Made by a program: the position numbers and the translations under genes
DNA from: Callorhinchus milii
Lineage: Eukaryota
NCBI RefSeq assembly: GCF_018977255.1
Contig: NW_024704742.1
Location: 88,662,001 to 88,726,000, forward strand
Length of the DNA stretch: 64,000 bases
Direction: 5' to 3'
The notes under the pieces: generated by a model
Told to the model about the DNA's origin: nothing
Seen by the model: only the letters and a program-made list of their open reading frames with translations
The model's database searches: none
Shown here: positions 1,364-60,720 of the stretch, piece by piece
Layout of the letters: each line of letters starts with the position of its first letter
How positions within the stretch are numbered: position 1 is the first letter of the stretch

Positions 1364-2960
1364 AGAACATAAGAACATAAGAATTAGGAGCAGGAGTAGG
1401 CCATTCGGCCCCTCGAGCCTGCCTCGCCATTTGCTAAGATCATGGCTAATCTTCAGACGTAACTCTAATTACCTGCCCTATCCCCTAATCCCTCTATTTT
1501 TTAAAAATCTATCAGTCTCAGCCTTGAAGATGTTCAAGGACTGAGCATCTACAGCCTTCTGGAGTAGTGAATTCCTACCCTCTGAGTGAAGAATTGTTTC
1601 CTCAACTCTGTTCTAAAAGGTTGACCCTTAATTTTAAGACTGTGACCCCTGGTTATAGATTCTCCTACCAGGGGAAACAGACCCTCAGTGTCTACTTTAT
1701 CCAGCCCTTTAAGAATCTTATATGTTTCAATAAGATCCCCCCTAATTCTTCTGTACTCTAGAGAATACAGCCCTAGTTTATTCAGCCTATCCTCATAGGT
1801 CAGTCCCCTCATCCCAGGAACTAACCGAGTGAATCTACGCTGCACCCTCTCTCGGGCAAGTATGTCCTTTTTTAAATAAGGAAACCAAAACTGCACACAA
1901 TACTCTAGGTGCGGTCTCACCAAGGCCCTATACAGTTACAGCAAGACTTCCCTACTCTTGTACTGTAAACCTTTTGCAATGAACGCTAACATGCCGTTCG
2001 CCTTCTTAGTTGTTTGCTGGACCTGCAAGCTAAATTTCTGAGACTGGTGTACAAGGACACCCGAATCCCTCTGAACACTAACACTATCTAATCTTTCCCC
2101 CTCTAGAAAATAATCTGTTTTTCTATTTTTTCTACCTAGGTGTATAACTTCACACTTCCCCACATTAAATTCCATCTGCCACCTACTCGCCCACGCCCCT
2201 TGCCTATCTATATCCTGTTGCAATCTTTTTGCATCACCTCAGAGCTTACTCTCCCACCTGGTTTAGTGTCATCCACAAATTTAGATACGTTACATTCAAT
2301 GTCCTCGTCTAGATCATTGATGTAAATTGTAAATAGCTGAGGCCCAAGCATTGATCCTTGTGGCGCTCTACAAGTCACATCCTGCCAATTCGAGAATGAC
2401 CCGGTTATCCCTACTCTCTGTTTTCTACCCGTTAGCCACTCTTCAATCCATGCTAATATGTTCCCATTAATCCCGTGGGCCTTAACCTTGTGCGGCCTTT
2501 TGTGTGGCACTTTGTCAAATGCCTTTTTAAAATCTAAATATACTACATCTACTGGTTCCCCCCTATATAACCCGCTAGATACATCTTCAAAAAAACTCTA
2601 AAAGATTAGTTAAGCATGACTTCCCTTTTGTAAAACCATGTTGACTTTGCCTAATCTTGTTATGTTCTTCCAGGAATCCCATAACGACATCTTTAATTAA
2701 GGACTTAAGAATTTTCCCTACCACTGATGTCAGACTAACTGGTCTACAGTTCCCCAACTTTTCTCTCCCACCCTTCTTAAATAGTGGTGTTACATTTGCA
2801 ATCTTCCAATCAATGGGAACCATTCCAGAATCCAGAGAATTTTGGAAGATCAAAGACAAGCCATCCACTATCTCAGTAGCCACCTCTTTTAAAACCCTAG
2901 GATGTAGGCCATCAGGTCCAGGGGATTTTGTCAGTTTTAAGACCTGACAATTTAACTAAA
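1364..2960 (-). mobile_element. CR1 LINE, 5'-truncated (frameshifted RT and 3' UTR)
   Basis: Minus-strand fragments IFQNSLDSGMVPIDWKIANVTPLFKKG, QHGFTKGKSCLTNLLEFF, PQGSMLGPQLFTIYINDLD, SKFVDDTK and VRPHLEYCVQFW. 3' octamer tail reads (agaacata)n on + at 1364-1383. Confidence 0.95.
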
Positions 2961-4224
2961 ATCATTTCTTTACTAATATTATTTCCCCCAAGTTGCTCAC
3001 TAACATTGTCTTCTTGGTTCCCCTCTATCTTAGCAAAAGCTGGTTCTATCTGCTTTGTTCGACCTCTTATTAGTGTGTACTCAGAAGACTTTCTAACCTA
3101 AATAGAAAAGCTTTGTCTTCATTGTTTTGAATAAGAAAAATATCTAAAATTAACTACAGCGTAATACAATTTAATCCTCCTAATGGCTCTTATATTTTTG
3201 CCCCCATGTTTTGGACTTGCCAACAAGTGCAAACAGCTTCTCAAAGTCCACCCTATTGAATTCTTTCACAATCTTTAACACCATAATCAAGTCCCCTCTC
3301 AATTGCCTCATCTCGCAGTTGATTTAGCAACACACACCTGAGATACGATAGATCATCTTTTTCTATGTTTCACAGTGTGTGAGATAATAAGTATAAAATT
3401 GATAAGATTTTCTTTTCACAGAGAGGTTTACTTTGAATCATTGTTTGTACTTTTTGTTCTGCAAGACTTGGGCTGTCTCTTAAACTGTTCAGAATGAAAA
3501 ATGTGCACCTTCCTGGATTCTAAGCACCATGTCGGAAACTCTTTGAATTCCCCATTTCTTTGCCGCCATTGGTTTTGATTTTGCAAAATCAAACTGAATA
3601 ATACTCATTTAACAATATAATGGTAGATGTAGTGTTCATTTTACTACTTTTTTAAACTTTTTGTTTTGTTTATTGTTCTTGTGCTTGTCCAAGTGAGGAT
3701 TGCTAGTTCTGAGAAATAGGATTGTTTCTCATGGGCATCTGTTACAGTTATTAAACCACTCTCAGATCAGGTGCAGTTGGTTACAGAATAATGTTACTGT
3801 CCAGCCTCCAATAATGCACATCAGCTCAAATCTCGGGAGGTATAAATCTACTGGACTAATCTGACATTTTGCATCTCTGATAATACTTCCTATATCTTCT
3901 CTAAGATTGGCAATTATGATTTCCAATTTAGTGCTGAATTAAGGGCAGGGTACTGGAATCTGTGTTGATACCCTACTATGTATTCACCTCCGACTATTCC
4001 CTATTCACGATTTGTGCTATGAACCTAATCTTAGGAGGAACTGTCAAAATTATCCCAGTATTTACTGTCAAATGTCCCACAAACAGTCGTGGATTGAGTG
4101 ACCAAATTATTATTATTTATTTTAATTTTTTTAAATTTTAAGGTAACAGACAACACTGTGTGTTTTATTAGTGTTTTACAGAGCAGCTCTGTAATGCCCC
4201 GTGGCAAAGTTAATTTCCATATGA

Positions 4225-4374
4225 ACAAAACACAAAATACTGCAGATGCTGGAAATCTGAAACAAAAACAAAGAGAGCTGGAAAAACTCAGCAGGTCAGG
4301 CAGCATCTATGGAGAAAGGAAAGTGAGTCAACGTTTCGGGTCCACGACCCTTCGTTTTCCCAGCTCTCTCTGTT
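4225..4374. mobile_element. Penelope-like terminal-repeat insertion with partial fold-back and 15-bp TSD
   Basis: Same repeat as at 6467, 25796 and 38706 (aaatactgcagatgctggaaatctgaaa...ctcagcaggtcaggcagcatct). Flanked by TTAATTTCCATATGA at 4210-4224 and 4375-4389. Confidence 0.75.
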
Positions 4375-6452: not shown

Positions 6453-6466
6453 TTAGAATCATCCTT

Positions 6467-6695
6467 AAACAAAAGGCAAAATACTGCAGATGCTGGAAAT
6501 CTGAAATAAAAACAAGTCGCTGGGAACACTGAGCAGGTCAGGCAGCATCTATGGAGAGAGGAAAGTGAGTTGACATACGGGCGATGACCTTTCATCAGAG
6601 TTCTGACGAAAGGTCAGAAACCTGAAATGTTAACTCACTTTCCTCTATCCATAGATCCTGAGTGTTCCCAGCGACTTCTGTTTTTATTATATGTG
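6467..6695. mobile_element. Penelope-like fold-back (inverted terminal repeat) insertion
   Basis: Left arm 6467-6598 and inverted right arm 6603-6688 (ctgagtgttcccagcgacttctgtttttatt is complementary to aataaaaacaagtcgctgggaacact). Possible 8-bp TSD TCATCCTT at 6459-6466 and 6696-6703. Confidence 0.75.
6598..6636 (+). ncRNA. Minimal type I hammerhead ribozyme motif
   Basis: GAGUU / CUGACGA / A / AGGU-cagaa-ACCU / GAAA / UG / UU / AACUC. Stem I is GAGUU:AACUC, both catalytic boxes are intact, stem II is present and the cleavage triplet is GUU. Helix III carries a C-to-T change relative to the ACGU seen in sister copies. Confidence 0.65.
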
Positions 6696-9897: not shown

Positions 9898-12711
9898 TGT
9901 AGCCTGTGCAGAATAGCGTTAAACGCAATATTTTTAGTTCTTACTTTGTTTCATGATACAATTTAGTGTTGTCTGGAACAAAGTGAAGTCTGAATAAATA
10001 GCTGATTTCAACTCTTTGTGTTTGGCTATTTCTTACACACTTCCTGGACATAGCTCAACAGAAGAGGAAAATTGTTGTTCCTCTCTTGTCCAGAAACCAG
10101 AGTGAGCTGTGTATAACCCCTGTCTTTGGAAACCACGATAAATTAATTTTATGCAGCCTTTCAAACTTATCAGCAAATACCGGCCTGTTTTGGTTCTGTT
10201 CCTGTTTGATCAGCCCCACCATCGGTGGATAAGTTTTCACCCATTCTGCACCTGCTCTCTGCCTTGCCCTCTTCATCTTCAAAACCTGAGTTAACACCTA
10301 TTTTTGACTATGTTTTCAGATGCCTTTCTCCCTCTCCCCCTCACGGCTTACCTACCAGTCAGCTATGTAAAGTGCTTTGAGACTTCAATGTACTATATAT
10401 TTATATTGTTGTCTGGTTAATTTATCAGATCCAATTAGTAGTTAACTTAGTATCGGTTCAGTTGTAATGCTAGCTTTTTGAGAAAATGTAAATGTAGAGG
10501 GCTTTTCATTTACATATTTGTGAAAAAAAGAAAGAGGTAAAACTGAGAAGGACCACATGGCAGGAAACACAATTTCTGGAGAAGTGGAAAGATGTGTAGC
10601 TTGACCTTTACAAATGCCCTATTAAACTGACATATACTTGTTTAAATATGCATGTTGGTCCTTTGCACAATTACTGGAAGAGCCTGTGAACTGTTACTCA
10701 CACAATCAAACCTCTTATTACCAACTTGCAACTCGTAGAAAATCCTATCCTGTGGCACAATACATGGAATTGCCGATTGATGTGATTACAGTTGGCGAGC
10801 TGTCACATTATTGCAGCAAGTTAAACATTTTGTTTTGATGTGTGGCACCAATTCATCCTTACACCTTTGCTATTCTGCAGTGTTTGGAACTGAAATGCCA
10901 CAGGTCAAAACTAGCACTGTAGCAATTACCCTCTTTGGGCTTTGAACATTCTTTAACAATAAAGCTCTGAAGCTGTTGATACTCATTAATTCAGTGATGC
11001 CGCTCTTTTCATACATGTTAATCAGATGCAGATTAATCTTTTACCCAAAAAGAATTCACAGACTTCACTTTTTTATGTGGGTGTTGAGTTATTGAAGTTG
11101 TAAATTGTGTTTCTGACATTGCGTTTTTGTCACCAGTCTAACCAGTCTCTCAATGTGAAATTTAGATACAAAAAATGACACAAAACAATGAATATTTTCA
11201 AAACATGGTAAATCTATGCAGGGGAGGAGTGGGGAGGGAAGGAGAAGAAGAGGGCTTTTGCTCTTACTGCTGAGAAGTAGCAGTTCTGGCATTGTGGGCT
11301 TCCCATGCATCTGGGAGAAAGCATCGTCATTGACTATTCAGTGTTACATGGCAAAGTCAACAGTTTGTAAAACACTAAATCCAGAATACTGCCAACCATG
11401 ACAACCTTGTGCCTTAATAGGCATAAATATTGGAATGTAAAATAATATTTTTAACCTGTGATTTAGTGCTCTGATGCAAAACGGAGTTACAAGGAAAGAC
11501 TAGAAGAATTGGGACTGCAAGTATCCAACGAATGAGCTCGAATTAATGGCCCTCTCCTCTGCTGGAATTTCTTTGATTCTGATTTAGACAAGAAAATTCA
11601 ACATTTAGCACGCAAAATATGAAATGAGAAATCTACCATTTGGCCCATTGAGTCCATTTTTTTCTCACTGATTGTAAGCTTTAAATAAATTGATGGGATT
11701 CTGTGGAACAAAACCCCAAACTTCTGGAACTCTCTGCCTCAATCCTGCCACATTGCCCCCTTCAGATCGCACCTGAAGACATGTGCCTATTGTTTTCGGC
11801 CATGCCTACTTACGGTCATTTCCCCTCTCCCGCTGGCTTGGTGTCAAACTACACCATTGTTAAGTGCTCCAAGACACTGCTCCACGTGAAGGGCACTGTA
11901 TAAATGCAAGTTGTTGAATCTCTTGAGAGTGAGAGAGGTTTAAGTAATCATAAGTAAAATTTGGCATTTAATAGGCATATTGATGTGAAAAAGAAATGGC
12001 ATTTCTATCCGGATGTAATTAAGCAAATAATAGATATTTAAAATGACCAGTTATATTCCACAGATAATATTCTATGTTTCTAACAGCAGGCAAATGTATC
12101 CTTCAATTCATTAACTGTAAATTTCCACAATGTTGACCATGTTTGCAAGAAGCAACTCAATGCTTGCAATAGTTGACCTCATATTTCCAGTTCATTATTA
12201 GCTCTAGAGATTACTTAATCATTTAACCTATTTTAATTGTGAGGGCTTTAATAAATAATAAATGTGCATCAAATAGATATACAAAGGTCTCTATGAATGT
12301 GGTTGGTTAACCTTTGGAAAGATATATTTATACTGACTTTCTTTTTACTATGATGAAAATTCTGGATATTCTCCATTACAACATTTCAGTTGTGTTTCAG
12401 CTCAGCACAATTTCTCTCCCGTTAAACAGTTTGCTGATTGCACCCAACTCCATTACTGGTTTCCTTGGAGATTAAATGCTGATGCACAAACACAGCTTAA
12501 TACGTGGAAGTAGTTGATTTTAATTGGGTCTTTATTACCCAAAGAGCTTTGAGCAAGTTACTAATTCAGTAATGCACTAAATAAATAGGAAAGTTGCCAG
12601 TTTCTCGTTTATTACTGTGTTCACAGAAGGCTGTGTATGTATTTTACATCATTCTTAATACTGATACAATTAGTTAGTAAGTAATACAAATTTTTGTCCC
12701 TTTTGTACTAG

Positions 12712-13106
12712 GTGGGGAGTCGGGAGATGAAAGTGATGCCCTCAGCATTAATGCTGATGCATACGATAGTGACATAGAACAAAACTGCAATGAACCTGAT
12801 GTTGCTGTCAGCCTTGTAGTGCCAGNAAAAAGCACAACCATTCGGGTTGGTGTTGAAGATGAGCTTCAAAAGGACATTGAGAAGAGCGTGAATGAGATTC
12901 TAGGTCTGTCAGGCCCAACTGTGGAGGAATCTGAATCATCTGGTTCTCCTGATCCAGATGGAGCGGGCACTCAGCCTTCAGCACAACAACTGGAATTGCT
13001 AGAACTGGAGATGCGGGCCAGAGCAATCAAGGCCTTAATGAGAGCTGGTGACCCCAAAAAGCAATCTGAAGGTTTGTCAAAGTACGATAAGAATGAGAAG
13101 ATGTGA
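12712..13106 (+). CDS. CAAP1: CAAP1 (caspase activity and apoptosis inhibitor 1) terminal coding exon
   Basis: Acceptor tttttgtcccttttgtactAG. Reads ESGDESDALSINADAYDSDIE...ELQKDIEKSVNEILGL...QPSAQQLELLELEMRARAIKALMRAGD to a TGA at 13104-13106. SINADAYDSDIE and AQQLELLELEMRARAIKALM are CAAP1 C-terminal motifs as recalled. One N at 12826 keeps the frame. Confidence 0.93.
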
Positions 13107-22442: not shown

Positions 22443-24605
22443 CAACAACAACAACAACAACCTGCATTTGTAGAGCGCTCCTCTCGCAGGGTAGGTTCCC
22501 TGGACAGTGGTGGGGCACGAATCCGAGCCGGGGCAGTGGGGGAGGTGACTAGGCATGGTTGAATAGGAAGGTCTTCAAATGCGACCTGAAAATGGGGAAG
22601 GAAGAGGCACGGCAGAGGGATAGAGAAAGTGTTTCAGGGTGCAGTGGCTGAAAGTGCGGCCACCAATGGTAGAACGGAGGGCACAGGAGTCAGGCAGAAG
22701 GCGAGTCGAGCGGAGGCAGCGGATTGTACGTTGGAGGGTAAGCAGGTCAGAAGGGTAGGGAGGTGCCAGGGCATGAAGGGATTTGAAAAAGAGTGGGAGG
22801 ATCTTGAAATTGACCCGTTCATTGACTGGGAGCCAGTGGAACTTGGCTAGAACTGGTGAGGGGTATGGAGTTTAGTATGGGTGAGTATGCAGGCAGAGTT
22901 TTGGATCAGTTGGATCCTGTGCATGATGGAGCTGGGGAGACCGCCAAAGGGGGGCATTTTAGAAGTCCATTCGGGAGGTGACGAACACATGAACGAGTGG
23001 GGTAAGGTACAGTTGGAGGTGGGCAATGTGGCAGAGGTGGAGCAAGGCGGTCCTGGCTAGAGACTGGTTGTGGGGAAGGAAGGACAGCTGTGGGTCGAAC
23101 GCTTAGGTAACGGACTGGTTCGGTAAGTCTCACAGATAGACTGGGGAGGTTGAGGAGATCAGAGCTGCAGGATATAAGACGTTGACAGGAGCCAAGGTGT
23201 ATGGCTTCCGTCTTGTCAACTTTGAGTTTAGGAAGTTTTCACTCATTCAGGCCCTGATGTCCGCTAGATGAGAACATCAGCAGACCTGGACTTCCAGCTG
23301 GAGGAGAAGTGTGTGTCATCTGCATACCTGTGGAAGTTTACCCTATGTCTGCGGATGATATTGCCTGGAGGGAACGTACAGATGAGGAAGAGGAGGGGGC
23401 CAAGGATGGAACCCTGGGCTACACCACAGGTGACCAGGCGGGGGTGAGAGGAGAAACCATTTGAGGAGATAAAGTGAAGGCAGTTTGTTAGGTAGGATTC
23501 GAACCAGGAAAGTGCAGTCCCACTGAGGTGGATGAGGGAAGAGAGGCAGTGGAGGAGGATGGCATGGTTGACTGTGTCGAAGGTGGTGGAGAGAACCAGA
23601 AAGACGACGAGGCAGAAGAGCCCTGGTCACAGAGAGTACAATACATTGTTTGTGACTTTGACAAGTGCTGTCTCTGTGCTGTGGGCAGTGCGAAAAGCAG
23701 ACTGCAGGGGAGTGGAGGGAGAGGTGAGAGCAAAGCTGGTTAGCGACAACACGTTCCAGAGTTTTGGCAAGGTTGGTAATTTGAGGGTGGAGAGTCAAGA
23801 GTGGGTTTTTTGAGAAGGGGAATGATGACAACGGTTTTAAGCAAGAGAGGAACAGAACATGAGGAGAGCGACTGGTTGACTGTTGGCCATTAGCAGGGAG
23901 AGAAGGGGGAGTTTGGGTGACCAGCAGTTGGGTGGGGAGGCAGTCTTGGCAACAGGTGCTGGGCTTCATCAGGGAGATGGTGGTTGAGAGGGAGGTGGGA
24001 GTAATCAGGGCAAAGGAGTGCAGAGAGGGAGGAGTGGTCGGGGCCATGGTGGAAGGAGGGGGTGGTGTAGATGCTCTGGGAGGTGCTGAAGGGGAGGAGG
24101 ATTCAGCCAGGCAGATGTTTTCGATCTTTGACACAAAGAGATCAAGGACCTCTTTGCACTTGGCATCAGAGGTGAATGGAGGCAGCTTGAGGATCTGCGC
24201 GGAGGAGGGGATGGACAGTGGAGAACTGTGCTTTTGGGTTGTTTTTGGCCTCCAAAATGGTTTTGGAGTAAAAGGCAGTTTTCGCCTGCGAGAGGGAGAG
24301 GCGGTAGTTGCGGAAACCATCGAGCCACAGCTGGCAGTGGATTGTGAGGCTGGATTTGTGCCATCTGGGCTCAAGCGTCCGGATTTTAGTTTTGAGGGAG
24401 TGGAGGTGACTGTTAGACCAGGGGGAGTGGGTAGATTTAGAGACAGACCTGGATTTCAGGAGGGCAAGGGAGTGGAGGGTTTCAGAGAGGCGATCGTTTA
24501 GCAGCTTGATGACAGCATCAAGATCGCTGCGGGTGGAAGGCCAGAGGGAGAAGAGATCCAAGGAAGCGAAGGCGTTTGTGAGGGACTTGGGTGGAAGCTT
24601 TTTGA
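22443..24605 (-). mobile_element. L2-clade LINE, ~2.1 kb, frameshifted
   Basis: Minus-strand ORF2 remnants SPWSNSHLHSLKTKIRTLEPRWHKS, LDLFVSKIENI and NLAKTLERVVANQLCSHL. (aac)n tail at 22443-22461. Confidence 0.9.
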
Positions 24606-25465
24606 AAAAGATCAAGAGCTTAGCAGTGCATTGCCATTTTTTAAAAAAAAAGCCTTACATAAGATACTTGAGCAGAAGAAAAGCTGCTTCAATATTCATT
24701 GAAGAAGAAAGAAACTGACGGATAAGACAGTTGTTTGCATCAATGAGATTGGTAGAATATGACTGCTAAATGCTATCTATCTTTGCAATGTACCCTCACA
24801 CTTTTTTATTGATCTCTCTTAACTTTGATATATCAGGACTCGCTTCATTCAAAGACCCGAGTATTTGGACATCTGTACTTAATCAGATGCAGCCCAATAA
24901 ACCCAAGCATTTACTATGAAACATTGACGCATATTTTGATTAAAAGAGATATACACTTCAGAGCAGGAATAATTGCAATATATTGCTTGTATATATGATT
25001 GCACTGAAATTACTACCTAATTGGTGAGTATTTTTAAGTAATTAACATATTGCGCATACTCATTTTGAGTTAATATGATGGTGTGCAATTTCATAAAATT
25101 AAAATTAATATTTTTCTGTATTTACTGACCATATTATACCCAATACAAATAGGCATTGAAACCAAGACAAAGAGACTTAGGAGTGTTACCACTGATTAAA
25201 ATAATTACAATTTTGGTCCACTTTAATTAAAATCAGTACAAATTCACATTTATACAATGCTTTTCACATTGGAGGATGTACCAAGACACTTGACAGTCCT
25301 GGCTTGGCACCCAGGCTGGGAGCTGAAGGGGTGGGGAGGAGAAAGATCAACAAACATTTAGGCATAATCTTCGGATTGATGGCTATCAAGCTAGAGAGGT
25401 TTAAGCTAAAATTTGTAAGTTTCTGTTAGTGGTATTCAGTTGAAAGATGTTTTAAAATATACACA

Positions 25466-25770
25466 ATACAAAATTACATTTGTATAGAGCCTTTCATATT
25501 GGGAGGACTTCTCAAAGCGCTGGGCAGTCAGGGATTTGGACTCGAGCAGGGGGGGGATGGGATCAGGGAGGGTAGAGGTAGGAGGGTGGCCGAAGGCGAG
25601 GTCGAAGAGGAGGGTTTTGAGATATGGCTTGAAGGAGGCAAGGGAGAGAGCGAGGTGAAGGGAATGTGGGACGGAGTTCCTAAGGGTGGGGGCCAAGAGG
25701 CTGAATGCCCGCCCGCCAATGGTGGGGTCGGACCAGGCGGGGCACGTGGAGCAGGTAGAGCTTGCTGAGC
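25466..25770 (-). mobile_element. L2 3'-end fragment
   Basis: PTIGGRAFSLLAPTLRNSVPHSLHLALSLASFKPYLKTLLF plus the L2 tail. Confidence 0.85.
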
Positions 25771-25795
25771 AGAAACCTGATTTATATTTCCTGCT

Positions 25796-26075
25796 AAACA
25801 AAATACAAATTACTGCAGATGCTGGAAATTTGAAACAAAAACAGAAGTCGCTAATAACACTCAGCAGGTCAGGCAGCATCTATGGGGAAAGGAAAGTGAG
25901 TCAACGTTTCAGGTCCAGACCCTTCGTCAGAACTGGGGCATGTTGGGAGGGAGAGACTAACAGAGAGGGGAGGCAGGGCAAGAAAGACAAAGGAGAAAAT
26001 GGGGTAGGAGTCAGAACAGCGTCAAAAGAGGTCTAAAAGTCAGAACAGTATCAGAGACAAGAGAGAGAGGCCAAA
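25796..26075 (-). mobile_element. Penelope-like terminal repeat, single arm with purine-rich extension
   Basis: Same repeat as at 4225, 6467 and 38706. It continues past the ribozyme motif into a GA-rich tract; the right boundary is uncertain. Confidence 0.65.
25899..25934 (-). ncRNA. Minimal type I hammerhead ribozyme motif (best-preserved copy)
   Basis: Minus strand reads AGUU / CUGACGA / A / GGGU-cugg-ACCU / GAAA / CG / UU / GACU. Core intact, palindromic helix III ACGU, GUU cleavage triplet, 4-bp stem I with one U-G pair. Confidence 0.7.
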
Positions 26076-26161
26076 CAGATTTGTCGGTAAAACCTTTTTT
26101 TTAACATTTAATATTTTACTTACTACGTTTAAAGTGTGAGGATGGACGGAGTATATAAATT

Positions 26162-32157: not shown

Positions 32158-33231
32158 TAGTATGGGATGTGCACTCTCTCCTGTACACTGAGTGTCAGCA
32201 GGCCCCAGCTCTTAAGTATATATTTTCAAGCATTCACAGTAGCTTGTGTAGTGTAATAAAGATTAATTTATTGAGCTTTTTTATGGCTCATTTAATTTCA
32301 CGCAAAAACTTTGAAGTATGAAAAATTCCAGCTTTACAGCATTTCTGTTGTTATCAGTTGTTTTTTAAATAGAGTACCAATTTCAGATACTGTATCAGCT
32401 TTTCCACTCTTGGTGATGCAGACAATGGGTGGAAATTGCCACGTATGATGTGTAAATCATAATGATGGTGCTAATTCTTACAATGTTGGGAAAAATCAGT
32501 TGATTGTTAAATTATGAAATAGTCTGTAAATGTGCCGTGTGCAGAAGCCAGAGGGTTTCGACGCCTGACTCACAGATCACAACATTGGATGCCGATTGGT
32601 GGGGCACTGGCTTTTATTCGGTCAATTACTTTATAACTTTGTGGGACATTGCTGTGCACAAATTGACTGCCGCGTTCACCTTCAAAAATGCACAGTCACT
32701 ATACCACAGAAAACTGTGTGAAGCACTTTGAGATGTTATGACTTCAGAAGGTGGGTTATCAACTACAAGGATTGTTTTTATTGTTGGATTTACCCGAATT
32801 GCATTAACGGGCAGACCAGTGCCATGGTCAGTGAGTCAGAGGTCAAAGGTTGGCCAGCTGTTGGGTGTAAGTAATGTTGATGGTTTCAGGGTTGTGCTGT
32901 TTATTCCAATTCCTTGCTCTCCGTATTGCCCAGCTCCTCCTTACACAAGCTACAGACCATCCAAAATTCTGCAGCACATGCACTCTCCTGCACCAGACTC
33001 TGAGCCTATTAGCCCCATCTTTGCTCAGATCCACTGTCTCCCCATCTCCCAGCAGATCGAATTTAGGATCCTTGCCCTCACGTCCAAATCCCTCCATGGC
33101 TCGGCCCATACTACATCTGGGACCTCCTGCACTCTAACCGATATCGCCCTCATTCATGTCCCTTCCCAGATTTGCCAACCAGTAAAGGGTAGTCAATTAC
33201 AATTAACCAGTTGGAGATCTCTGCTCTGAAG

Positions 33232-33822
33232 ACAACAATAACAACAACCAAATTACATTTGTATAGCGCCTTTCACATCGGGAGGATGTCCCAAGGCGCT
33301 GGACAGACAGAGTTTCGGACTCGAGCTGGGGGTCGGGGTCGGAGAGGGTGGAGGGCAGGGGGGGAAGCAGGATGATCAAAAGCATGGTTGAAGAGGAGAG
33401 TCTTGAAGGAGGTAAGGGAGGGGGTGAGGCAGAGGGACTGTGGGATGGAACTCCAGAAGGTTGGAGAGGAGTGGCAGAAGGCCTGCCGCCAATCGTGGGG
33501 AGAGCGAGGCGGGGGACATGAAGCAGGCTGGAGCCCACTGAGCAGAGGGAGCGAGCAGGATGGTAGGGGGTTAGGAGGTCGCAGAGGTAGGGGAGAGCAA
33601 GACCATGGAGGGCTTTGAAGGTGAGAACCAGAATCTTGAACTGTATCCTCTGTGTGATGGGAAGCCAGTGGAGTCGGGCGAAGATGGGGGTGATAGGGTC
33701 ACAGAGCCTGGTGTGGGAGACAACATGGGCTGCAGAGTTCTGGATGATCTGCAGCCTATGGAGGGAGGAGTTGGGTAGGCCGACAAGCAAGGAGTTTGCA
33801 TAATCAAGCCTCGATGTAATGA
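33232..33822 (-). mobile_element. L2 3' fragment
   Basis: ITSRLDYANSLLVGLPNSSLHRLQIIQNSAAHVV...LHWLPITQRIQFKILVLTFKALHG plus an (aac)n tail. Confidence 0.92.
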
Positions 33823-34613
33823 ACAATAATAATAATAATCCTTGCATTTGATATGGCGCTTTTCACGTCATTGGCAAGATGCACTTAAGTTCACCAAGAA
33901 AGGGGTCTCTGATGTATATGAAAGGTGGATAATCTTTGGATAGTCACATTGCTACATCGTTTGATATCATTTGTGTTTCAATAGAACTTTAGCTCACGTA
34001 GCCTTTCAAGTTAAGTGAGGCTTGTACTAAATAATCTACAGTCTTAAAAGCTTTATAATTACATAGAGCTATGCAAAGTTACATAGAGTGATGTGGCATG
34101 GAGACAGGCCATTATATCACCTTTAATGGGAAGCTGATGCATCTATACCATCTGGAGTGAATATTAGATATTCTGGCTAGTTTCCATGCACCATTAGAAT
34201 AATCTTATTTTGAAGAATCGAAGATCACTTGTAAATCTGTTTGCTTTGTAGGTTTACAGTAAACCTATTTACCAATCTTCAGATGTGTTAAACATTAGTC
34301 TGTGGAAGTTCTTTGAACAATGCCAGCCTAATGTATGTATTAATAAAATAAATCATAAATCTCCTTAACAACACAATATAAACATCAATCATCAATACAA
34401 CGTATAATCTGAATTTATATTTTTCTTAGGCTGAGTGTTATGAGAAGAATGTTTAAGGATTGCAGTGCAGGATCAGATAACATATTGTACTCGGCAGACA
34501 GTGGGACAGAGCAAACATATTGTAAACTATATCTAAACTGAAATTGTAACTCTCTCCAATGCTAATCGCCCCTTATTATACACTTCAATGTTACCTTGGT
34601 GTTTGCAGTTGTT

Positions 34614-36375: not shown

Positions 36376-38635
36376 GAATAGAGAAGAGAAGGAAAATCAT
36401 TCGCATGGATCATTATTTTTCAATGTCTCCATGGCAATGAGTTTCCAAACGTGTCAGACACCCGGTTTAAACAAAAACAAAAAGAAGCCCTGGGGTAGTT
36501 TTATCTGTTTGCTTTGTTACGTTATGTTGTTTCTGTTTGTATCAGGTCTCACGACAGGATTCCACAGCTCTTAACCTCCATAGTGCTAATAACAATGATA
36601 TTGTCAGTGCGGATTTCATAATTGGGCATAATCACTCCATGTCTATTGAATCCAGCAGTGGGTATGTATCATAGGTAAACATTATCATGAAAATTCTGGA
36701 CTAAAAAATCATTCACCGCAGAGTGGATTTTTATTAAATGAGTGGGTATGTGAAGAACTGACAGCAGAGGAGCAGATTCCAGTTTGCTGGAGTGCAAGGT
36801 GCATCCTTGCAATGCTGGGGTTGATGAGATGGTGTTTGCAATACCCTTTCCCTAGATTAACAATAGTGTAATGCAGCCCCACCTTCCCCCCCGAGTAGGG
36901 CAGCTAAACTCACACAGAGAATCTTGGCTATAGCTTGGCAAACCCTTTAAACATTAACTGAACTCACACCAACCATGTAGCCAACCACTTTTTGGCACCA
37001 TGACATTTTTGTTACTCTGATGACAGCATTTAAGTACTGCTTCACAGGATTCTGATTGAGGTAATAATAATAATTATAATAATTAATAATAATAATCCTT
37101 GCATTGTTATAGTTCCATATCGCAATGTAAAAACATCTCAGGCACTTCACATGATTTTACTGTAAGGTGTAGCGAATGTGCATTTGTAAGCTAAGTTGCA
37201 ATCGGGTGCAGAAATGGAGCAGAGAAATTCTCCGACCTTGAGCTGGACGGTGGTGTGGGGGGGGGGGGGCTGGAGGTGGGGGAAGGAGAGGGGAAGGGTG
37301 AAGAAGGAATGATGCTGGCTGGTGGATTGAAAACATTGCATTCTGGCTAAAGTTGGTGTGTTCACAGCCAATCTTTAGGAATAGATGGAGAACTGGGGTG
37401 TTTCATAATGTGTTCCATTTAGGAAACATCAGTTAGGAAACATTGCAGCTTTCACCCCAAGATGTTTTTAACAGAGAGGCCATAGCCCCAGTTGATCTAC
37501 CCACAATGCCAGCTGATGCGAGCAGTTTCTTTTTGTTTATGTGAGAGCGAATGAAATGGACAGAAACCTGCCAAACTTTAGTAAAGTTTCAGGCTAGCAA
37601 TTGAATCGGAATAGCAAAAATTCAGAGGAAAAAAAAGAAACATTTGTTATCAGTCTTAGCATAACAAAAAGTTTTTAATAACAGGAAGATAGATACCTAT
37701 GGCAATTAATGGAAAAAACATCAAATTGAAGTCTTATGAAGAGTACGTGCTCTGGGTAGACAGCAGGCTGTCAACATAATATTAACAAGTTACCGCAGCC
37801 AGCAGGTGTCAAGTTTACAAGTTAATGAATTTATAGAACCTACAATAAACATGTCATGCAACTGCCTATTTCTTGTTAATGAAGAATCTTTATTAAGTCA
37901 ACTGGTCTTGTATGGCTGTTTGAAAACATTCTTATTTTCCAACCCGCATGTGGAGGCACCAGAGCTACCGTTTCAGCTTCTTTTGCAAGATTGAATTCAT
38001 GGAGGAAAAGTGCAGTCATTCGATGTAAAGTAACGTATTGCTAATGTGCACATCTGATGTTGGTGGGGAAAGATTTGCTACATGGAATATTTGGACAAAT
38101 GGGTCAACCAAAAGGGAATGTAGCCCTCACAAGTCCTGTTAACACAGCAGGACATTCATTCACAAAGAGGAAGGTTGGGAAATGCTAATTATGACTTTTT
38201 TTTCCATCTAAGTTGCACTATTTGTAAAAGTACTTTGAGACAACCTCCTGTTGTGACAGGTGCTGTTTAAATGCGCTCCAAGACGCTACCCTGTGTAAAG
38301 GGTGCTATATAAATGCAAGTTGTTCTTGTAAATAATACTGTATTTTAAATTACATTGTAAACTGTATTGTGAAGTCCCATACAAAGGTACAACTAAAAAT
38401 TCCATTCAGCATTAGATGTAATGCCTTTAGCAATGCACAACTATAATGGGAAATCCCATTAGTGGCCAATACGCACATCATCGACCTCTCCATGTCAAAT
38501 GATACCCTTCCTACCTCCTAAAAACAGCTGTCATCACCCCTATCCTAAAAATAACCTTCCCTGGACACATCACTGCTCATTAACTACTGCCCCATCTCCA
38601 ACCTCCCTATCCTTTCCAAGGTCCTTGAAAGAGTT

Positions 38636-38975
38636 CACGTTGAAGAAAAGAGCAAAACTTCTTCAAGGTAGGCATTCCTAGAAGAGAAGTGGCAGTGAAT
38701 TAAATATAAACAAAACCCCAAATACTGCAGATGCTGGAAATCTGCAACAAAAACAGAAGTCGCTGGGGACACTCAGCAGGTCAGGCAGCATCTATGAAGA
38801 AAGGAAAGTGAGCCCACTTTTCGAGTCTTCAACGTTCTGATGGAGGGTCATGGACCCGAAATGTTGATTCACTTTCCTTTCTCCTCATACTGCTGCCTGA
38901 CCTGTTAAGTGTTCCCAGTGACTTCTGTTTTTGTTTCAGATTTCCAGCATCTGCGCTATTTTGCATTTTGTTTCT
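38636..38975. mobile_element. Penelope-like fold-back insertion with 11-bp TSD, nested in L2
   Basis: Inverted arms of ~105 bp (38708-38813 and 38868-38973). TTGAAAGAGTT duplicated at 38625-38635 and 38976-38986. Degenerate hammerhead CUGAUGG-A-GGGUC-aug-GACCC-GAAA-UGUU at 38837-38865. Confidence 0.8.
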
Positions 38976-39196: not shown

Positions 39197-39530
39197 TATA
39201 ATAATGTATATGATATAATCCCTGGATTTGATATATCGCCTTATCATGTCTTCGAGATGTCTCAAAGTGTTTCACAGAATATACTGTAAAGTGAATCGAC
39301 TGTATATTTTGTGGGCGAAACGCAGCAGCCAATTGTGTACAGCAGTGTCCCACAAACAGTCATGGATCGAAATGACCAATTTATTATTATTTTTTTGAAG
39401 GAATTATTACCCTCGGAAAAACGATCCGTCAATCGACTAACAACCGAGTTCCTACTTACTGCTAGGTAAACAGAGGCATCTGGAGTAAGGAAACTTTTCG
39501 ACGTGCCAGGAATCTGACCCAGGTCTCTCA
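39197..39530 (-). mobile_element. tRNA-Ala-derived SINE, long subfamily, nested in L2
   Basis: Reverse-complement body (gttcctacttactgctaggtaaacagagg). L2 sequence resumes on both sides. Confidence 0.85.
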
Positions 39531-40734
39531 TCGGCTCCACCTTGTCACCACAAATCGCTTCACCTCCATCCCCCGGAGTGTCACGTGTGGCATTCCTCAG
39601 GATTCTGTCCTCGGTCCTCTCCTTTTCAACCTATACATGCTCCCTCTTGGTGACGTCATCCACAGACAGGGGGTCAACTTTCACATGTATGCGGATGACA
39701 CCCAACTCTATCTCTCTGCCTCCAACCTCGACCCTGGGACCACTGATGCCCTGACAGATTGCCTGACAGATATCAAGTCCTGGATGAGAGCTAACTTTCT
39801 ACAGTTGAACGTCAGCAAGACCGAGGATCTCCTGCTTCGCTCCTGTCAGAGCCTCCACACCTCAGGCACTGACAACATCAGCACTCATGGATGCACACTC
39901 CAACTCACCGAGCTAATCAGGAACCTGGGCATCTTGTTTGACTCTCAACTGTCCTTTCTCCCCCACATCCATGCCATGACCCGCTCTGCCTTCCACCACC
40001 TCCACAACATTGCGCGACTCAGCCACTGCCTCTCCCCTCAGACCACCTCATACATGTCTTCATTACAATCAGGCTCGACTATGCCAACACCTTGCTTGTC
40101 GGCCTTCCCAACTCTTCCCTCCACAAGCTGCAGATCATCCAGAATTCTGCACCTCATGTCCTCTCCCGCACCAGGCTCTGTGACCCCATCACACCCACCC
40201 TCGCCCGGCTCCATTGGCTCCCTATCCCTCAGAGGATCGAGTTCAAAATTCTCGTCCTCACCTTCAAGACCCTCCATGGCCTTGCCTCCTCCTACCTCTC
40301 CGACCTGCTAACCTCTTATCAACCTGTCCGTTCCCTCCGCTCAGCCGGCTCCGGCCTGCTCCACGTTCCCCGGCCTATCCCACCGTCGGCGGTTGAGGCC
40401 TTCAGCGTCTCTGCCCCCACCCTCTGGTAATCCATCCCGCATTCTCTTTCCCTCGCTCCCTTCCTTGCCTCCTTCAAGGCATGCCTCAAGACCCTCCTCT
40501 AGGGCCTTGCCTTTGGCCACCGTCCAACCTCTCTGCCATTCCTGATCCCAAACCCCACTCGGGTCCTAATCCCTGACGTGAAAGGCACTTTACAAATATA
40601 GTTTTGTATTCTATCATCTCCGGCTATGTGCATAATGCTGAGCTGAATGGAATTTTTAGCCATACATCTGCAGTGGAGGATTTGACCCCAGAATAGGCGA
40701 GATGATCTGAATAGCCTCCTTCCATTCTATATAT

Positions 40735-53760: not shown

Positions 53761-55713
53761 CAACAACAACAAGATTACATTTGTACAGCGCCTTTCACGT
53801 TGGGAGGACGTCCCAAAGTGCTGGACATAGTACAGCATTTCAGACCCGAGCTGGGGTCAGGGGAGAGAAAAGAGAGGAGGGGAAGGGGTGTGGCCTATGG
53901 CTTGGTTGAAGAGGAGGATCTTGAGGCAGGACTTGAAAGAGGCTAAGGAGGGGTCGAGGCAGAGTGATTGGGGGATGGAATTCCAGAGGTTGGGGGCAGA
54001 GAGTCTGAAGGCTCTCCCGCCAATGGTGGGCCGGGTGGGTTGGGGGACATGGAGCAGGCCAGAGCCGGCTGAGTGGAGGGAGCAGGCGGGTTGATAGGGG
54101 GTTAGGAGGTCGCAGAGGTAAGGTGGGGCGAGGCCATGGAGAGCTTTGTATGTGAGGATCTTGAACTGGATCTTCTGAAGGATAGGGAGCCAGTGGAGTC
54201 GGGCGAGAGTGGAGGAGATGGGGTCACAGAGTTTAGTGCGGGAGAGGACACGGGCTGCAGAGTTCTGGATTATCTGCAGCCTGTGGAGGGAGGAGTTGGG
54301 AAGGCCGACAAGCAGGGCATTTGCATAGTCGAACCTGGAGGTGATGAAGACATGAACAAGAGTTTCAGAGGCCTGAGGGGTGAGGTAGTGGCGGAGTCAT
54401 TCGATGTTACGGAGGTGAGGGAAGGCAGAGCGGGTCATGGCTTGGATGTGGGGAAGAAAAGACAGTTAAGATACCTAGGTTCCTGACTGGCTTTGTGAGT
54501 TGAAGTGTGCAACCATGGAGGTTGATGCTGCCAGAGCCTGAGGTGCAGAGGCGCTGGCGGGAGCCAATCAGGAGGGCCTCAGTCTTGTTCACATTCAACT
54601 GTAGGAAATTTGCCCTCATCCAGGACTTGATGGCAGTCTGTCAGGACAGCAGTGGTCCTGGAGTTGAGGGTGGAGGCAGAAAGATAGAGTTGGGTGTCAT
54701 CCGCATACATGTGGAAGTTGACCCCATATCTGCAGATGATGTCACCAAGATAGAGCATGTAGATATTAAAGAGGAGAGGGCCAAGGACAGAGCCCTGGGG
54801 GACGCCAGACATGACAGTGCGCGGGCTGGAGGAGAAACCGTTAGAGGCAACAAAGTGGAGACGGTGAGAGAGATAGGAATCGAACCAGGCAAGGGCAGAT
54901 CCGTGAAGATTGAGTAAAGCAGAGAGGCGGTGTATGAGGATGGAGTGGTCGACAGTGTCGAAGGCGGCAGAGAGGACAAGGAGGCAGAGGGAGCCCTGAT
55001 CACAGATGTTCAGAATGTCATTAGTGACTTTGACCAGGGCTGTTTCTGTGTTGTGGGCAGCGCGGAAGCTGGATTGGAGGGATTCAAAGAGGTAATGGCG
55101 AGAGAGAAAGGAGCGGAGCTGGGACGTGACGACCCGTTCCAGGACCTTGGAGAGGAATGGGAGGTTAGAGATGGGGCAGTAGCTGGAGAGGAGGGATGGA
55201 TCCAGGGAAGGTTTTTTCAAGATGGGGGTGATGACGGCTGTTTATAGGGGGGTGGGAACTGAACTGGTGGACAAGGAGAGGTTGATGACTTCGGACAGGA
55301 GAGGGGTTAGAAGGTGGAGCTGGGAGATGACGAGAGAGGTGGGGATGGGATTGAGGGAGCAGGTGGTGGGTTTGAGTTTGCGAACAGTCGCGGTGAGGGA
55401 GGAGAGAAAGATAGGGTTGAAGGAGTATGGGGGGGATGGTTGGGGGGGTGGGTCATGAGGGAGAGGAGAAGTGGGGGTGGCTGTGGACGTGGCAGAGGTG
55501 ACTGAACATATCCCCTCGATTTTGGATTTGAAGAAGTCCAGCATCTCTTCACAGTTGGAGTTTGAGGAGAGGATTGGCGAGGCATGGGAAGGTGGACGGA
55601 GGAGATGGTTTGTGGTGGAAAAGGAAAACCTGGGGTTGTTCTTTGCCTCCAAGATAACCTGGGAGTAGAAGGAGGATTTGGTAGAGGCAAGAGCGCAGCG
55701 GTAGGTTTGGTAG
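53761..55713 (-). mobile_element. L2-clade LINE, ~1.95 kb, inserted into a DeuSINE
   Basis: RT core [44 protein letters not shown] and MYADDTQLYLS. (aac)n tail at 53761. Confidence 0.95.
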
Positions 55714-55890
55714 ATCCACCTGAACAAGCAGACGGGATATAGGGTTAACATGTCATCCGAAGGACAGCACCTCCGACAATACAACACCTCCCATTGGAAC
55801 ATCAGACTAGAATATGTGAGTTCAAGTCCTGACGTGGGGCTTGAAACTACAACCTTCTGATTCAGACATGAGAATGCTAAACCAGGTGAG
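55714..55890 (-). mobile_element. DeuSINE 5' half
   Basis: tcatccgaaggacagcacctccgacaat...gtggggcttgaaactacaaccttctgattcag. Confidence 0.7.
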
Positions 55891-57177
55891 ATTCTGAGAG
55901 GTGAGATTCAGAAATGAGCCAGACTGATGATACCCACTGTACCAGGCTAACACACAAGTTTTCAAAATGCCTAAAAATGCACAGTTGTGACACTTTATAT
56001 CCTGTGAACGCTTTGAGATGTCCTCTTGACCTGAAAAGTGCTGTAGCAAATGTAAGAATCATTGCTATTTTGTTATCCAGCCTTCTGAAGCTAAGGGACA
56101 AAAACAAAATAAACAGCATCATGGAAAGTTAAATGGCTGAGGTTTGTGAATTTTTCCTAGTTGAACAAAAGCAGCCACTGATGAGGTGTTTACTCACATT
56201 ATGTCGACTGGAAGCTGTGCTGGGTCGTGCCTCTTAACTGATAAACAAGCTGGCAGCATCTTCTGTGGCGTTTAAACCAACAGTTCACAGATATCATTTT
56301 GAAGTGCATTGGCTTTTCATTGTGTTTCTCACTTCAGATCAATAATAATCATTTATCCTCAGGACTTGTTCTCAAAAACTGCTGCTATGGATCCTCTGTA
56401 ACCCTTTCTGTGTAGGAATTTGATGGTCTGACAGCAGGTTTGTCGGTGTCCTGAGTAATTGTTGTACGAGGTGTTATCAACAAAACTAATCAAATACCAG
56501 GTTGCATCTTAAGGGCATTTGTCTACACGTCAAAATAAGTTATTTGTTTGTTGTTTGCTCTGTCTTGTTTTTTCCCCTTCAATTTTCTCCTCTCACCTCC
56601 TGTATGTGCTCTGCCAGATCACTTCACCTTTGAAATGTTACACAATTTTAGAGCTCAGGGACTTCCACTTTACGAATTTCAGCCCCACTGTATGTGATTT
56701 AGGGTCACCCTTGTTCTGGGATTGAAAATGCACTTCAATGTAATAGCAGCAGAAGGAAAGGATACTTCATGGTAGGAACAGGAATCACCTTGGGTCACAG
56801 AGCCATGTCTGCAGGGACTCAGGTACAAGATGCTGATCTCACCACTGACCCTACGCCTGGTCACAGCTGAGTCCTGGCGACATGTAGTCACCTACATGGG
56901 GTTTCCTAGAGGAGTCACACTTTGTGAATTGAGGTGGTGGTTTACTGTCGCAAGATTTTCTGAGGTTTTTTTACCAATGTAAATGCATCAGTCCCAGGGG
57001 CATTTTTCCAACAGGCTATATCAAATGCAAGGACTATTATTGACTATTATTATATAAGAAACAATGCACTTCAAAAGCAAAAAATAAACCAGCTAAAAAA
57101 ATTGGGAGACCAGTTATGAACTTGTCTTAACCTATAAGATTATGACGATCGCACAGAATTGTGGAAAAACCTTGAAC

Positions 57178-60014: not shown

Positions 60015-60720
60015 TATTTTTCTTAGTTTGCTTGAACTTCCTAAAATAGCTACTTTCTGGAGGATATTTTGGACACCAGATATATTGTCAAGCCATTTCT
60101 GAATTGTCTTAAAAGTTGCACCGATGGTTGTAGGAACTTTGCTTGTTTTCTCCTACTACATGCAGATCAATATATTTCATGATCTTCTCTAGTTCCTTGT
60201 TTCGTAAGTTGTATGATAGCCACGTCAATCATAGTGCATGTACAATCATGTTGTTTTTTTTGTTGCAGATTACTGTTCTATCTTTATGTACTTATGAATA
60301 TCAGATTATTGTCATGTTCTTTTTTGGTGTCATTTTTGCTGTTTGATGTTCCTGCCAGTTGGGCTTCACATCAATATCAAAGTGTTTACAAATTATCCAG
60401 TGAATATATTTAACTACATTATTATGTCAAACCAGATCCGCAGATTGTGCTAGGGCTGGACATGATGACAATATGTGGTCTACTGTTTCTGGTATTTGGT
60501 GGCATATTTAGCATTTGAGATCAATGTTTCTCTTTAAGATCTTATTTTCATAATAATAGGTAGTAATAGCATGGTGTTGTGCTGATATTATGAAAGCTTC
60601 TGTTTAGGCTCTTAGATTTTTGTTAATCAACCAGTTGTAGCTTTGTTCCTACCTAGGCCTTGTTTTTTTCATTTCTCTTGGAAATTGACCATGCATGATT
60701 TTCTTCTCCTATTTGACTTT
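60015..60720 (-). mobile_element. Fossil restriction-like-endonuclease non-LTR retrotransposon (R4/Dong/Rex6-like), C-terminal part
   Basis: Manual minus-strand translation across stops and frameshifts: KIMHGQFPRE; SYNWL..TEAFIISAQ; LKC*ICHQIPETVDHILSSCPALAQ (CCHC knuckle); *HNNVVKYIHWIICK; KDRTVICN; MIDVAI; NKELEKIMKYIDL; VPTTIGA; LQKVAILGSSSKLRK. Confidence 0.8.

Follow-up and report, generated by a model that had tools for sequence, protein, structure and literature searches.

A probably inactive minimal hammerhead in a short repeat of Callorhinchus milii that is very likely a Penelope-like element end

The minimal hammerhead motif at 25899..25934 (minus strand) of a 64,000-nt stretch of Callorhinchus milii DNA, hereafter the window, is real. 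The repeat copy that carries it (copy A) is, judging by its anatomy, very probably the end of a Penelope-like element (PLE), namely a dead-on-arrival, 5'-truncated pseudo-LTR (pLTR) of an endonuclease-bearing PLE. Membership was inferred from anatomy because no reverse transcriptase (RT)/GIY-YIG ORF was linked to the repeat. The arrangement is already known from fish and amphibian genomes, and the family adds a new member to it.

When the minus strand was checked letter by letter, 36 of 36 nucleotides of the hammerhead string were found at 25934..25899 as the original prediction had written them, with the CUGANGA and GAAA boxes, stem II, palindromic ACGU, GUU triplet and short stem I all present. 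Helix I pairs AGUU (25934-25931) with GACU (25902-25899) and closes on a U2.1.G1.1 wobble. It is followed on the same strand by the CUGACGA core box (25930-25924), an extra A (25923), a 4-bp stem II (25922-25911) with a G10.1.U11.1 pair and a 1-nt deletion in the loop, the GAAA core box (25910-25907) and the ACGU palindrome (25907-25904). The predicted cut site lies after the GUU triplet, between 25903 and 25902. In standard numbering, C3 is at 25930, G8 at 25925, G10.1 at 25922, position 11.1 at 25911, G12 at 25910 and U17 at 25903. The minimal type I descriptor that had been suggested as a check (4-bp helix I, optional extra base, 4-8-bp stem II, palindromic 15.2-16.2, U-H) gave two matches in the window, copy A and 6599-6635 (plus strand), and none in any of 300 dinucleotide shuffles. 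The two core boxes alone were not above chance (2 in the window versus 0.92 expected; 19 of 100 shuffles reached 2). Both boxes together with an N-U-H triplet were present in two of the six arms of the repeat (copy A and C2, see below), and copy A has the PLE-type features of an extra base after A9, a palindromic 15.2-16.2 and a short helix I, which is 4 bp here and 4-5 bp in the published type. The isolated 36-mer folded no better than its own shuffles (z -0.14), as expected for a motif lacking helix III. An Rfam search of the window (E<=5) returned no hammerhead family; its miRNA matches at 4.3, 6.6 and 38.8 kb were rejected as fold-back arms scoring under the gathering thresholds.

The motif had been described as intact. 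However, copy A departs from the family majority: G10.1 faces U, and loop II is one base short. Position 11.1 was C in 74, 66 and 76% of the contig depth in three sequencing runs and in 1177 of 1672 RNA reads (70%). The pair at 10.1-11.1 is G-C in the family majority, A-U in a second subfamily and G.U in copy A, and most family members that span loop II have one base more there than copy A. Copy A has lost the G-C pair, most simply through CpG decay at C11.1-G12, together with one loop base. A G.U pair at 10.1-11.1 reduces hammerhead activity. The energy of stem II was -1.7 kcal/mol in copy A versus -5.8 kcal/mol in copies B and D2. When copy A was folded in its natural flanks, the pair probabilities of helix I and helix II were both 0.00. 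As a dimer, its catalytic fold scored -4.5 versus -28.4 kcal/mol for the best cofold, these scores being nearest-neighbour energies that ignore the catalytic core. Copy A also lacks a tandem partner. With two lesions in stem II, helices that do not form in the modelled flanks and no tandem partner, the activity implied by the original prediction is not supported, and copy A is mutated and probably inactive as a ribozyme. No other arm of the six combines both core boxes with the ACGU palindrome and a complete helix I of four pairs, and copy A shares 85-91% identity with its sister arms over the downstream block.

BLAST and nhmmer searches within the 64,000-nt window recovered the four copies that had been predicted as four loci, which hold six arms. 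Copy A is a dispersed-repeat copy of about 215 bp with a single arm, running from 25795 to about 26010 on the minus strand. Its pLTR-like downstream body (25795..25898, minus) has a fixed 3' end about 108 nt past the cut site and no poly(A) or microsatellite tail; contigs begin at 25795-25797, beside heterogeneous AT-rich flanks. Its pyrimidine-rich, 3' UTR-like upstream part (25935..26010, minus) has CAG at helix I and is 5'-truncated near 26010, and family depth stops at about 26011. About 10 nt present in family members near 25955 are absent from copy A, and no convincing target duplication was found around it. Upstream element sequence is joined to the hammerhead unit, as in a 3' pLTR, and no complete tandem was found in the window.

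Locus B (4225..4374, minus) has a sense arm at 4225-4355 that starts inside the CUGA box and is preceded by a 19-nt inverted piece carrying B's own variant letters; its target duplication is 15/15 bp, at 4210 and 4375. At locus C (6467..6695), arms C1 (6467-6598, minus) and C2 (6599-6688, plus) lie head to head, joined at helix I, and are identical at 49 of 52 positions, with a target duplication of 8/8 bp at 6459 and 6696. The locus is of the A10.1-U11.1/A1.1 subfamily; C2 kept both core boxes but has U15.2 and a shortened 3' end. Locus D (38636..38972) likewise holds head-to-head arms, D1 (minus) and D2 (38833-38972, plus), within an RT-coding LINE relic. Its target duplication of 13/14 bp, at 38622 and 38973, was confirmed because D interrupts an RT frame that matches the RT relic at 54.6-55.2 kb. 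D1 carries a one-sided extension (tail) of 71 nt (38636..38706, minus) that is absent in the other five arms. It consists of a pyrimidine tract ending in UAG, then an ATG and 13 open codons up to the target duplication; no second copy of the tail in the window and no protein relative was found.

An inverted 5'-truncated arm was seen beside the pLTR at three of four loci (B, C and D), a one-sided tail in one of six arms (D1), and variable target duplications of 8-15 bp at B, C and D, with no poly(A) tail; the flanks of family contigs are AT-rich. Arms A, B, C1 and D2 share the position of the 3' end, C2 falls short of it and D1 reaches 71 nt beyond. The starts of B, C1, C2 and D2 lie no more than about 9 nt from the 5' edge of helix I, and none of the six arms starts at the cut site. 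The core is broken in four arms (CUG is missing in B, GAAA in C1 and the 5' half in D1, and D2 has A9->G), and no arm of the six matches the family majority across the whole ribozyme. If transcribed, loci C and D would each form one long hairpin (-113 to -166 kcal/mol), which by this modelling would bury the ribozyme. Direct tandem hammerhead repeats, the mark of non-LTR retrozymes, were found at none of the four loci, and a tandem retrozyme reading was rejected for that reason; a MITE reading was rejected because the duplication length varies.

In copy A and in D1, all three frames that pass through the hammerhead are closed inside the unit. On the 3' side of the hammerhead lie three pyrimidine tracts that end in AG, after about 20 nt, after about 70 nt and in the D1 tail (25795-25898 and 38636-38706, both minus). 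In D1, the first tract is followed by an ATG opening a 37-codon frame, whose stop lies 2 nt before the tail ATG. The tracts are possible splice acceptors, and the 37-codon frame a possible upstream ORF.

The original prediction of a ribozyme-bearing Penelope terminus is supported by the motif architecture, target duplications, head-to-head arms, one-sided tail and fixed 3' end, but the RT plus GIY-YIG ORF that should go with it was not found. An inverted 5'-truncated arm with a one-sided tail of 30-40 bp has been described for PLEs (PMC8557442), as have head-to-head junctions with target duplications of 8-10 bp (PMC3846280). In an anole PLE, RT was shown to start internally, at two sites that bound the tail, to extend both nicked strands and to use AT-rich targets and uncleaved templates (PMC11167929). 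Minimal hammerheads occur in PLE ends of fishes, coelacanth, Xenopus and reptiles; they were inactive as monomers and weak as dimers, and their G10.1-C11.1 pair was termed highly conserved, not invariant (PMC4209133). The anole PLE hammerhead cuts only with the element protein (PMC11167929).

No RT/GIY-YIG ORF was linked to the repeat in the window, where all four insertions are too short to contain one. GIY-YIG and PLE-RT regular expressions, run on all six frames of the window, gave no match beyond two short generic patterns. Pfam searches, which covered 9 of 62 long frames and, from 45-64 kb, 10 of 30 six-frame pieces with two plus frames lacking, returned only RVT_1 and a weak zf-RVT. A protein search with the 48-codon D1 frame returned nothing at E<=10. 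Two matches among 1.84 billion from a second search with the D1 frame (32-43%) were dismissed as tandem-repeat artefacts. Pattern scans gave 0 matches in viral contigs (two scans) and 0 in prokaryote genomes (two scans); two metagenome matches were discarded as chance hits that lie in an unrelated coding frame and resemble the window nowhere else. Neither the repeat nor any cartilaginous-fish name was found in the searched supplements of PMC8557442 and part of those of PMC4209133. A search confined to the literature returned no paper on the repeat family itself; the supplements of bioRxiv 2026.07.22.740005 may list it.

Parts of the stretch occur in twenty sequencing runs, none of which contains more than 29% of its words. 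Four of the 24 runs listed (three contig sets and one RNA set) were aligned to 25760-26160 at 80% likeness. These are probably from relatives, since the unique flank of copy A was uncovered. The three contig sets held 7,181, 14,601 and 4,815 family contigs, and 6,694 of 13.87 million poly(A) RNA records belonged to the family. Family depth started at about 25795 with heterogeneous AT-rich flanks and ended near 26011. Summed depth over single-contig depth gave roughly 6-8 x 10^4, a rough figure and not a true copy number; the window density of 62 loci per Mb (95% range 17-160) is of the same order. The very large population that had been predicted is supported for the repeat, which is abundant (thousands of contigs, 62 loci per Mb), but only two of the six arms here retain both core boxes and none equals the family majority across the ribozyme.

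Two stem II subfamilies, GGGUC-GUG and AGGUC-AUC, were recognised among the loose ends listed, and C2 (A10.1-U11.1, A1.1) belongs to the second. Between them there is one both-sided change at 10.1-11.1 (G-C versus A-U) with the core boxes unchanged, and this is the sole family-level support for the structure; covariation on the six arms was not above shuffles (236 of 500 reached it). The stem II loop had been said to differ among copies with pairing kept. Mostly this is decay, and compensatory evolution was rejected as its explanation: cugg is a 1-nt deletion, aug a CpG change, and cagaa the second subfamily with the fifth pair lost. Across the four runs, G8->A was seen in 9.8, 12.5, 13.5 and 9.2%, C7->U in 15.0, 17.7, 24.1 and 9.2%, C15.2->U in 15-20% and G16.2->A in 14-18%; no other core position was variable among the 40 variants listed of 85. 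The copies look unselected because the essential G8 decays like the other CpG positions. The decay of the family is near-symmetric CpG decay that does not spare the catalytic base, and it looks neutral.

At loop II, the loose ends with the best support keep to the element sequence as far as the CAG that precedes helix I, beyond which they are heterogeneous. In one run (X1), 123 + 127 contigs ended in this way versus 125 that aligned through the gap, a count biased by clipping. These ends suggest a preferred 5' stop at helix I. None of the 24 groups of loose ends listed lay at the cut site (896 more fell beyond those listed). RNA reads over the core were on both strands (1,228 and 1,145), and 83% continued into unlike sequence; the RNA reads of the repeat are passive read-through. 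Their ends showed no pile-up, which is a weak test of cleavage in a poly(A), fragmented library with another organism label. In run X21, groups of 485 and 370 loose-end reads with high agreement were seen at window positions 25800 and 25830, and point to a few abundant host transcripts containing a copy of the repeat.

The surroundings of the four loci contain other repeats and one exon-like frame. The C-terminal part of that frame, at 12681-13106 (plus), resembles CAAP1; chordate Atlas look-alikes scored 0.86 and 0.75, a lead only, and no Pfam match was found for it. Copy A is on the other strand, about 12.7 kb downstream of this frame. No RNA run was listed as containing the stretch. Six tRNA-like heads (5124, 9577, 18742, 20929, 41537 and 45502), each leading into a common body that ends in a short (TTA)n tail, represent a tRNA-derived SINE family with many headless copies. 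Broken RT-coding LINE relics, presumably of CR1 and L2 types, lie at 1549-2955 (minus), 22906-24654 (minus), 33203-33862 (minus), 39466-40430 (plus) and 53857-55907 (minus), with RVT_1 Pfam matches at 2.6-2.9, 39.5-40.3 and 54.6-55.2 kb. Copies A, C and D are within or adjoin such relics. A weak zf-RVT match (E 0.001) at about 60300-60650 (minus) is probably the end of a third kind of LINE.

If the repeat is a PLE end, its copies could have arisen as follows. Published PLE work suggests that the source elements would carry a minimal hammerhead near the pLTR 5' edge, cutting weakly, either as a dimer through ACGU or aided by protein. The GIY-YIG endonuclease of the element would nick AT-rich DNA in a staggered fashion, giving the 8-15-bp duplications observed at three of four loci. 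RT would start at a fixed internal site about 108 nt past the cut site, where fixed 3' ends were observed, and sometimes at a second site 71 nt further on, as the single tail suggests. Both nicked strands would be extendable, and such priming could yield the head-to-head arms that were observed. Since none of the arms starts at the cut site, the RNA serving as template would have been uncleaved. Once inserted, the copies would decay neutrally, copy A losing G10.1-C11.1 by CpG decay along with one loop base. We tentatively propose, as a possibility we consider somewhat doubtful, that the stubs are not random truncations: they would be run-off copies, bounded on one side by the internal RT start and on the other by a template whose 5' end is the first base of helix I. 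A single-unit transcript could then give only a hammerhead-headed retroposon of about 140 bp, synthesised on one or both of the nicked strands with uncleaved RNA as template, and solo pLTRs would number in the tens of thousands. At helix I, the sequence CCAGUUC fits an initiator consensus; it follows a pyrimidine tract and can also be read as a 3' splice site. Helix I is where an intron of D. virilis Penelope ends (PMC4209133), and the promoter of that element is internal (PMC2377424). That an initiator or splice acceptor at helix I sets the 5' boundary is speculative.

Against the PLE reading stand the missing RT/GIY-YIG link, a 71-nt tail longer than the described 30-40 bp, the lack of a target duplication at copy A and the null covariation of the six arms. 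In the main rival reading, a PLE end gave rise to a non-autonomous unit of about 140-360 nt, resembling a retrozyme or SINE, and this repeat unit is itself transcribed and mobilised in trans by PLE protein. Such a reading would account for the very high copy number of a short unit, for the start of four of six arms within about 9 nt of the helix I 5' edge and for the absence of any ORF found, and hammerhead retrozymes with a mean of 363 bp in one cartilaginous fish were argued to be pLTR-derived (bioRxiv 2026.07.22.740005). We consider it unlikely, however, because a tandem arrangement was seen at none of the four loci, because copy A and D1 extend beyond such a unit, by 76 nt upstream and 71 nt downstream respectively, as would be expected of fragments of a longer element, and because the ends at the cut site that retrozyme circles predict were not seen.

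It is very unlikely that the repeat is unrelated to Penelope (a fold-back DNA element, a LINE 3' end or a solo LTR) and that its likeness to a hammerhead is incidental or a captured relic. The full descriptor was absent from all 300 shuffles, the duplications vary in length (8-15 bp), copies with one arm occur beside copies with two, there is no poly(A) or microsatellite tail, and the change between subfamilies at 10.1-11.1 is both-sided, even though no ORF was linked, Rfam returned no hammerhead and the isolated motif folded like its shuffles (z -0.14). Variable duplications of 8-15 bp are unlike those of cut-and-paste or LTR elements. Copy A might be a host-exapted working ribozyme, retained at its locus to cut a transcript, and it alone of six arms has both boxes, ACGU and four helix I pairs, with family sequence present in poly(A) RNA reads. 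This we regard as most improbable, given the two stem II lesions, an identity of 85-91% to sister arms as in any relic, the lack of the fold in natural flanks and of a dimer partner, and RNA reads that lie on both strands, run in 83% of cases into unlike sequence and show no end pile-up.

A single motif of this kind carries little weight, since PLE-end hammerheads are already known and copy A looks damaged. The family is of some use, by contrast, as its many short insertions record where reverse transcription started on the 3' side and where it stopped on the 5' side. That the insertions end at the outer edge of the ribozyme and not at the cut site agrees with one biochemical study, in which PLE insertion proceeded from uncleaved RNA, and a genome-wide tally of insertion ends would bear on the role of the PLE hammerhead. 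The run-off proposal, if true, would explain solo and fold-back pLTRs generally, and the genome would be a natural record for a ribozyme acting against versus for transposition.

Compared with the published minimal PLE hammerheads (PMC4209133), the motif has the same type I topology, an extra base at A9/10.1, no loop III, a palindromic 15.2-16.2 and a short helix I. Those hammerheads, like this repeat, number in the thousands per genome, mostly as single copies (about 4,000 in coelacanth and 9,000 in Xenopus), although the copy number here may be, as a rough estimate, about ten times the published numbers. Stem II is 5 bp in the repeat family and 4 bp in copy A. Where G10.1-C11.1 was published, copy A has G.U and one subfamily A-U; the triplet here is GUU, and no ORF is linked. 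The insertion units of endonuclease-bearing PLEs (Arkhipova et al. 2013, PMC3846280; Craig et al. 2021, PMC8557442) share the head-to-head inverted arms, one-sided tail, target duplications and strong 5' truncation. They differ in that here the pLTR stub stands alone (about 150-340 bp), the tail is 71 nt and not 30-40, and duplications reach 15 bp. Non-LTR retrozymes (bioRxiv 10.64898/2026.07.22.740005), likewise short, non-coding, pLTR-related units with a type I hammerhead, are present in one cartilaginous fish, but they are defined as tandem repeats, and a direct tandem was seen at none of the four loci here. The anole Poseidon PAc (Frangieh et al. 2024, PMC11167929) also carries its hammerhead some 100 nt upstream of the 3' end of the insertion, has 3' ends at two positions and AT-rich targets, and shows no RNA ends at the cut site. 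The ORF of PAc starts in stem II, whereas here the frames through the hammerhead close in copy A and D1, and the first plausible ATG for a long ORF lies in the tail.
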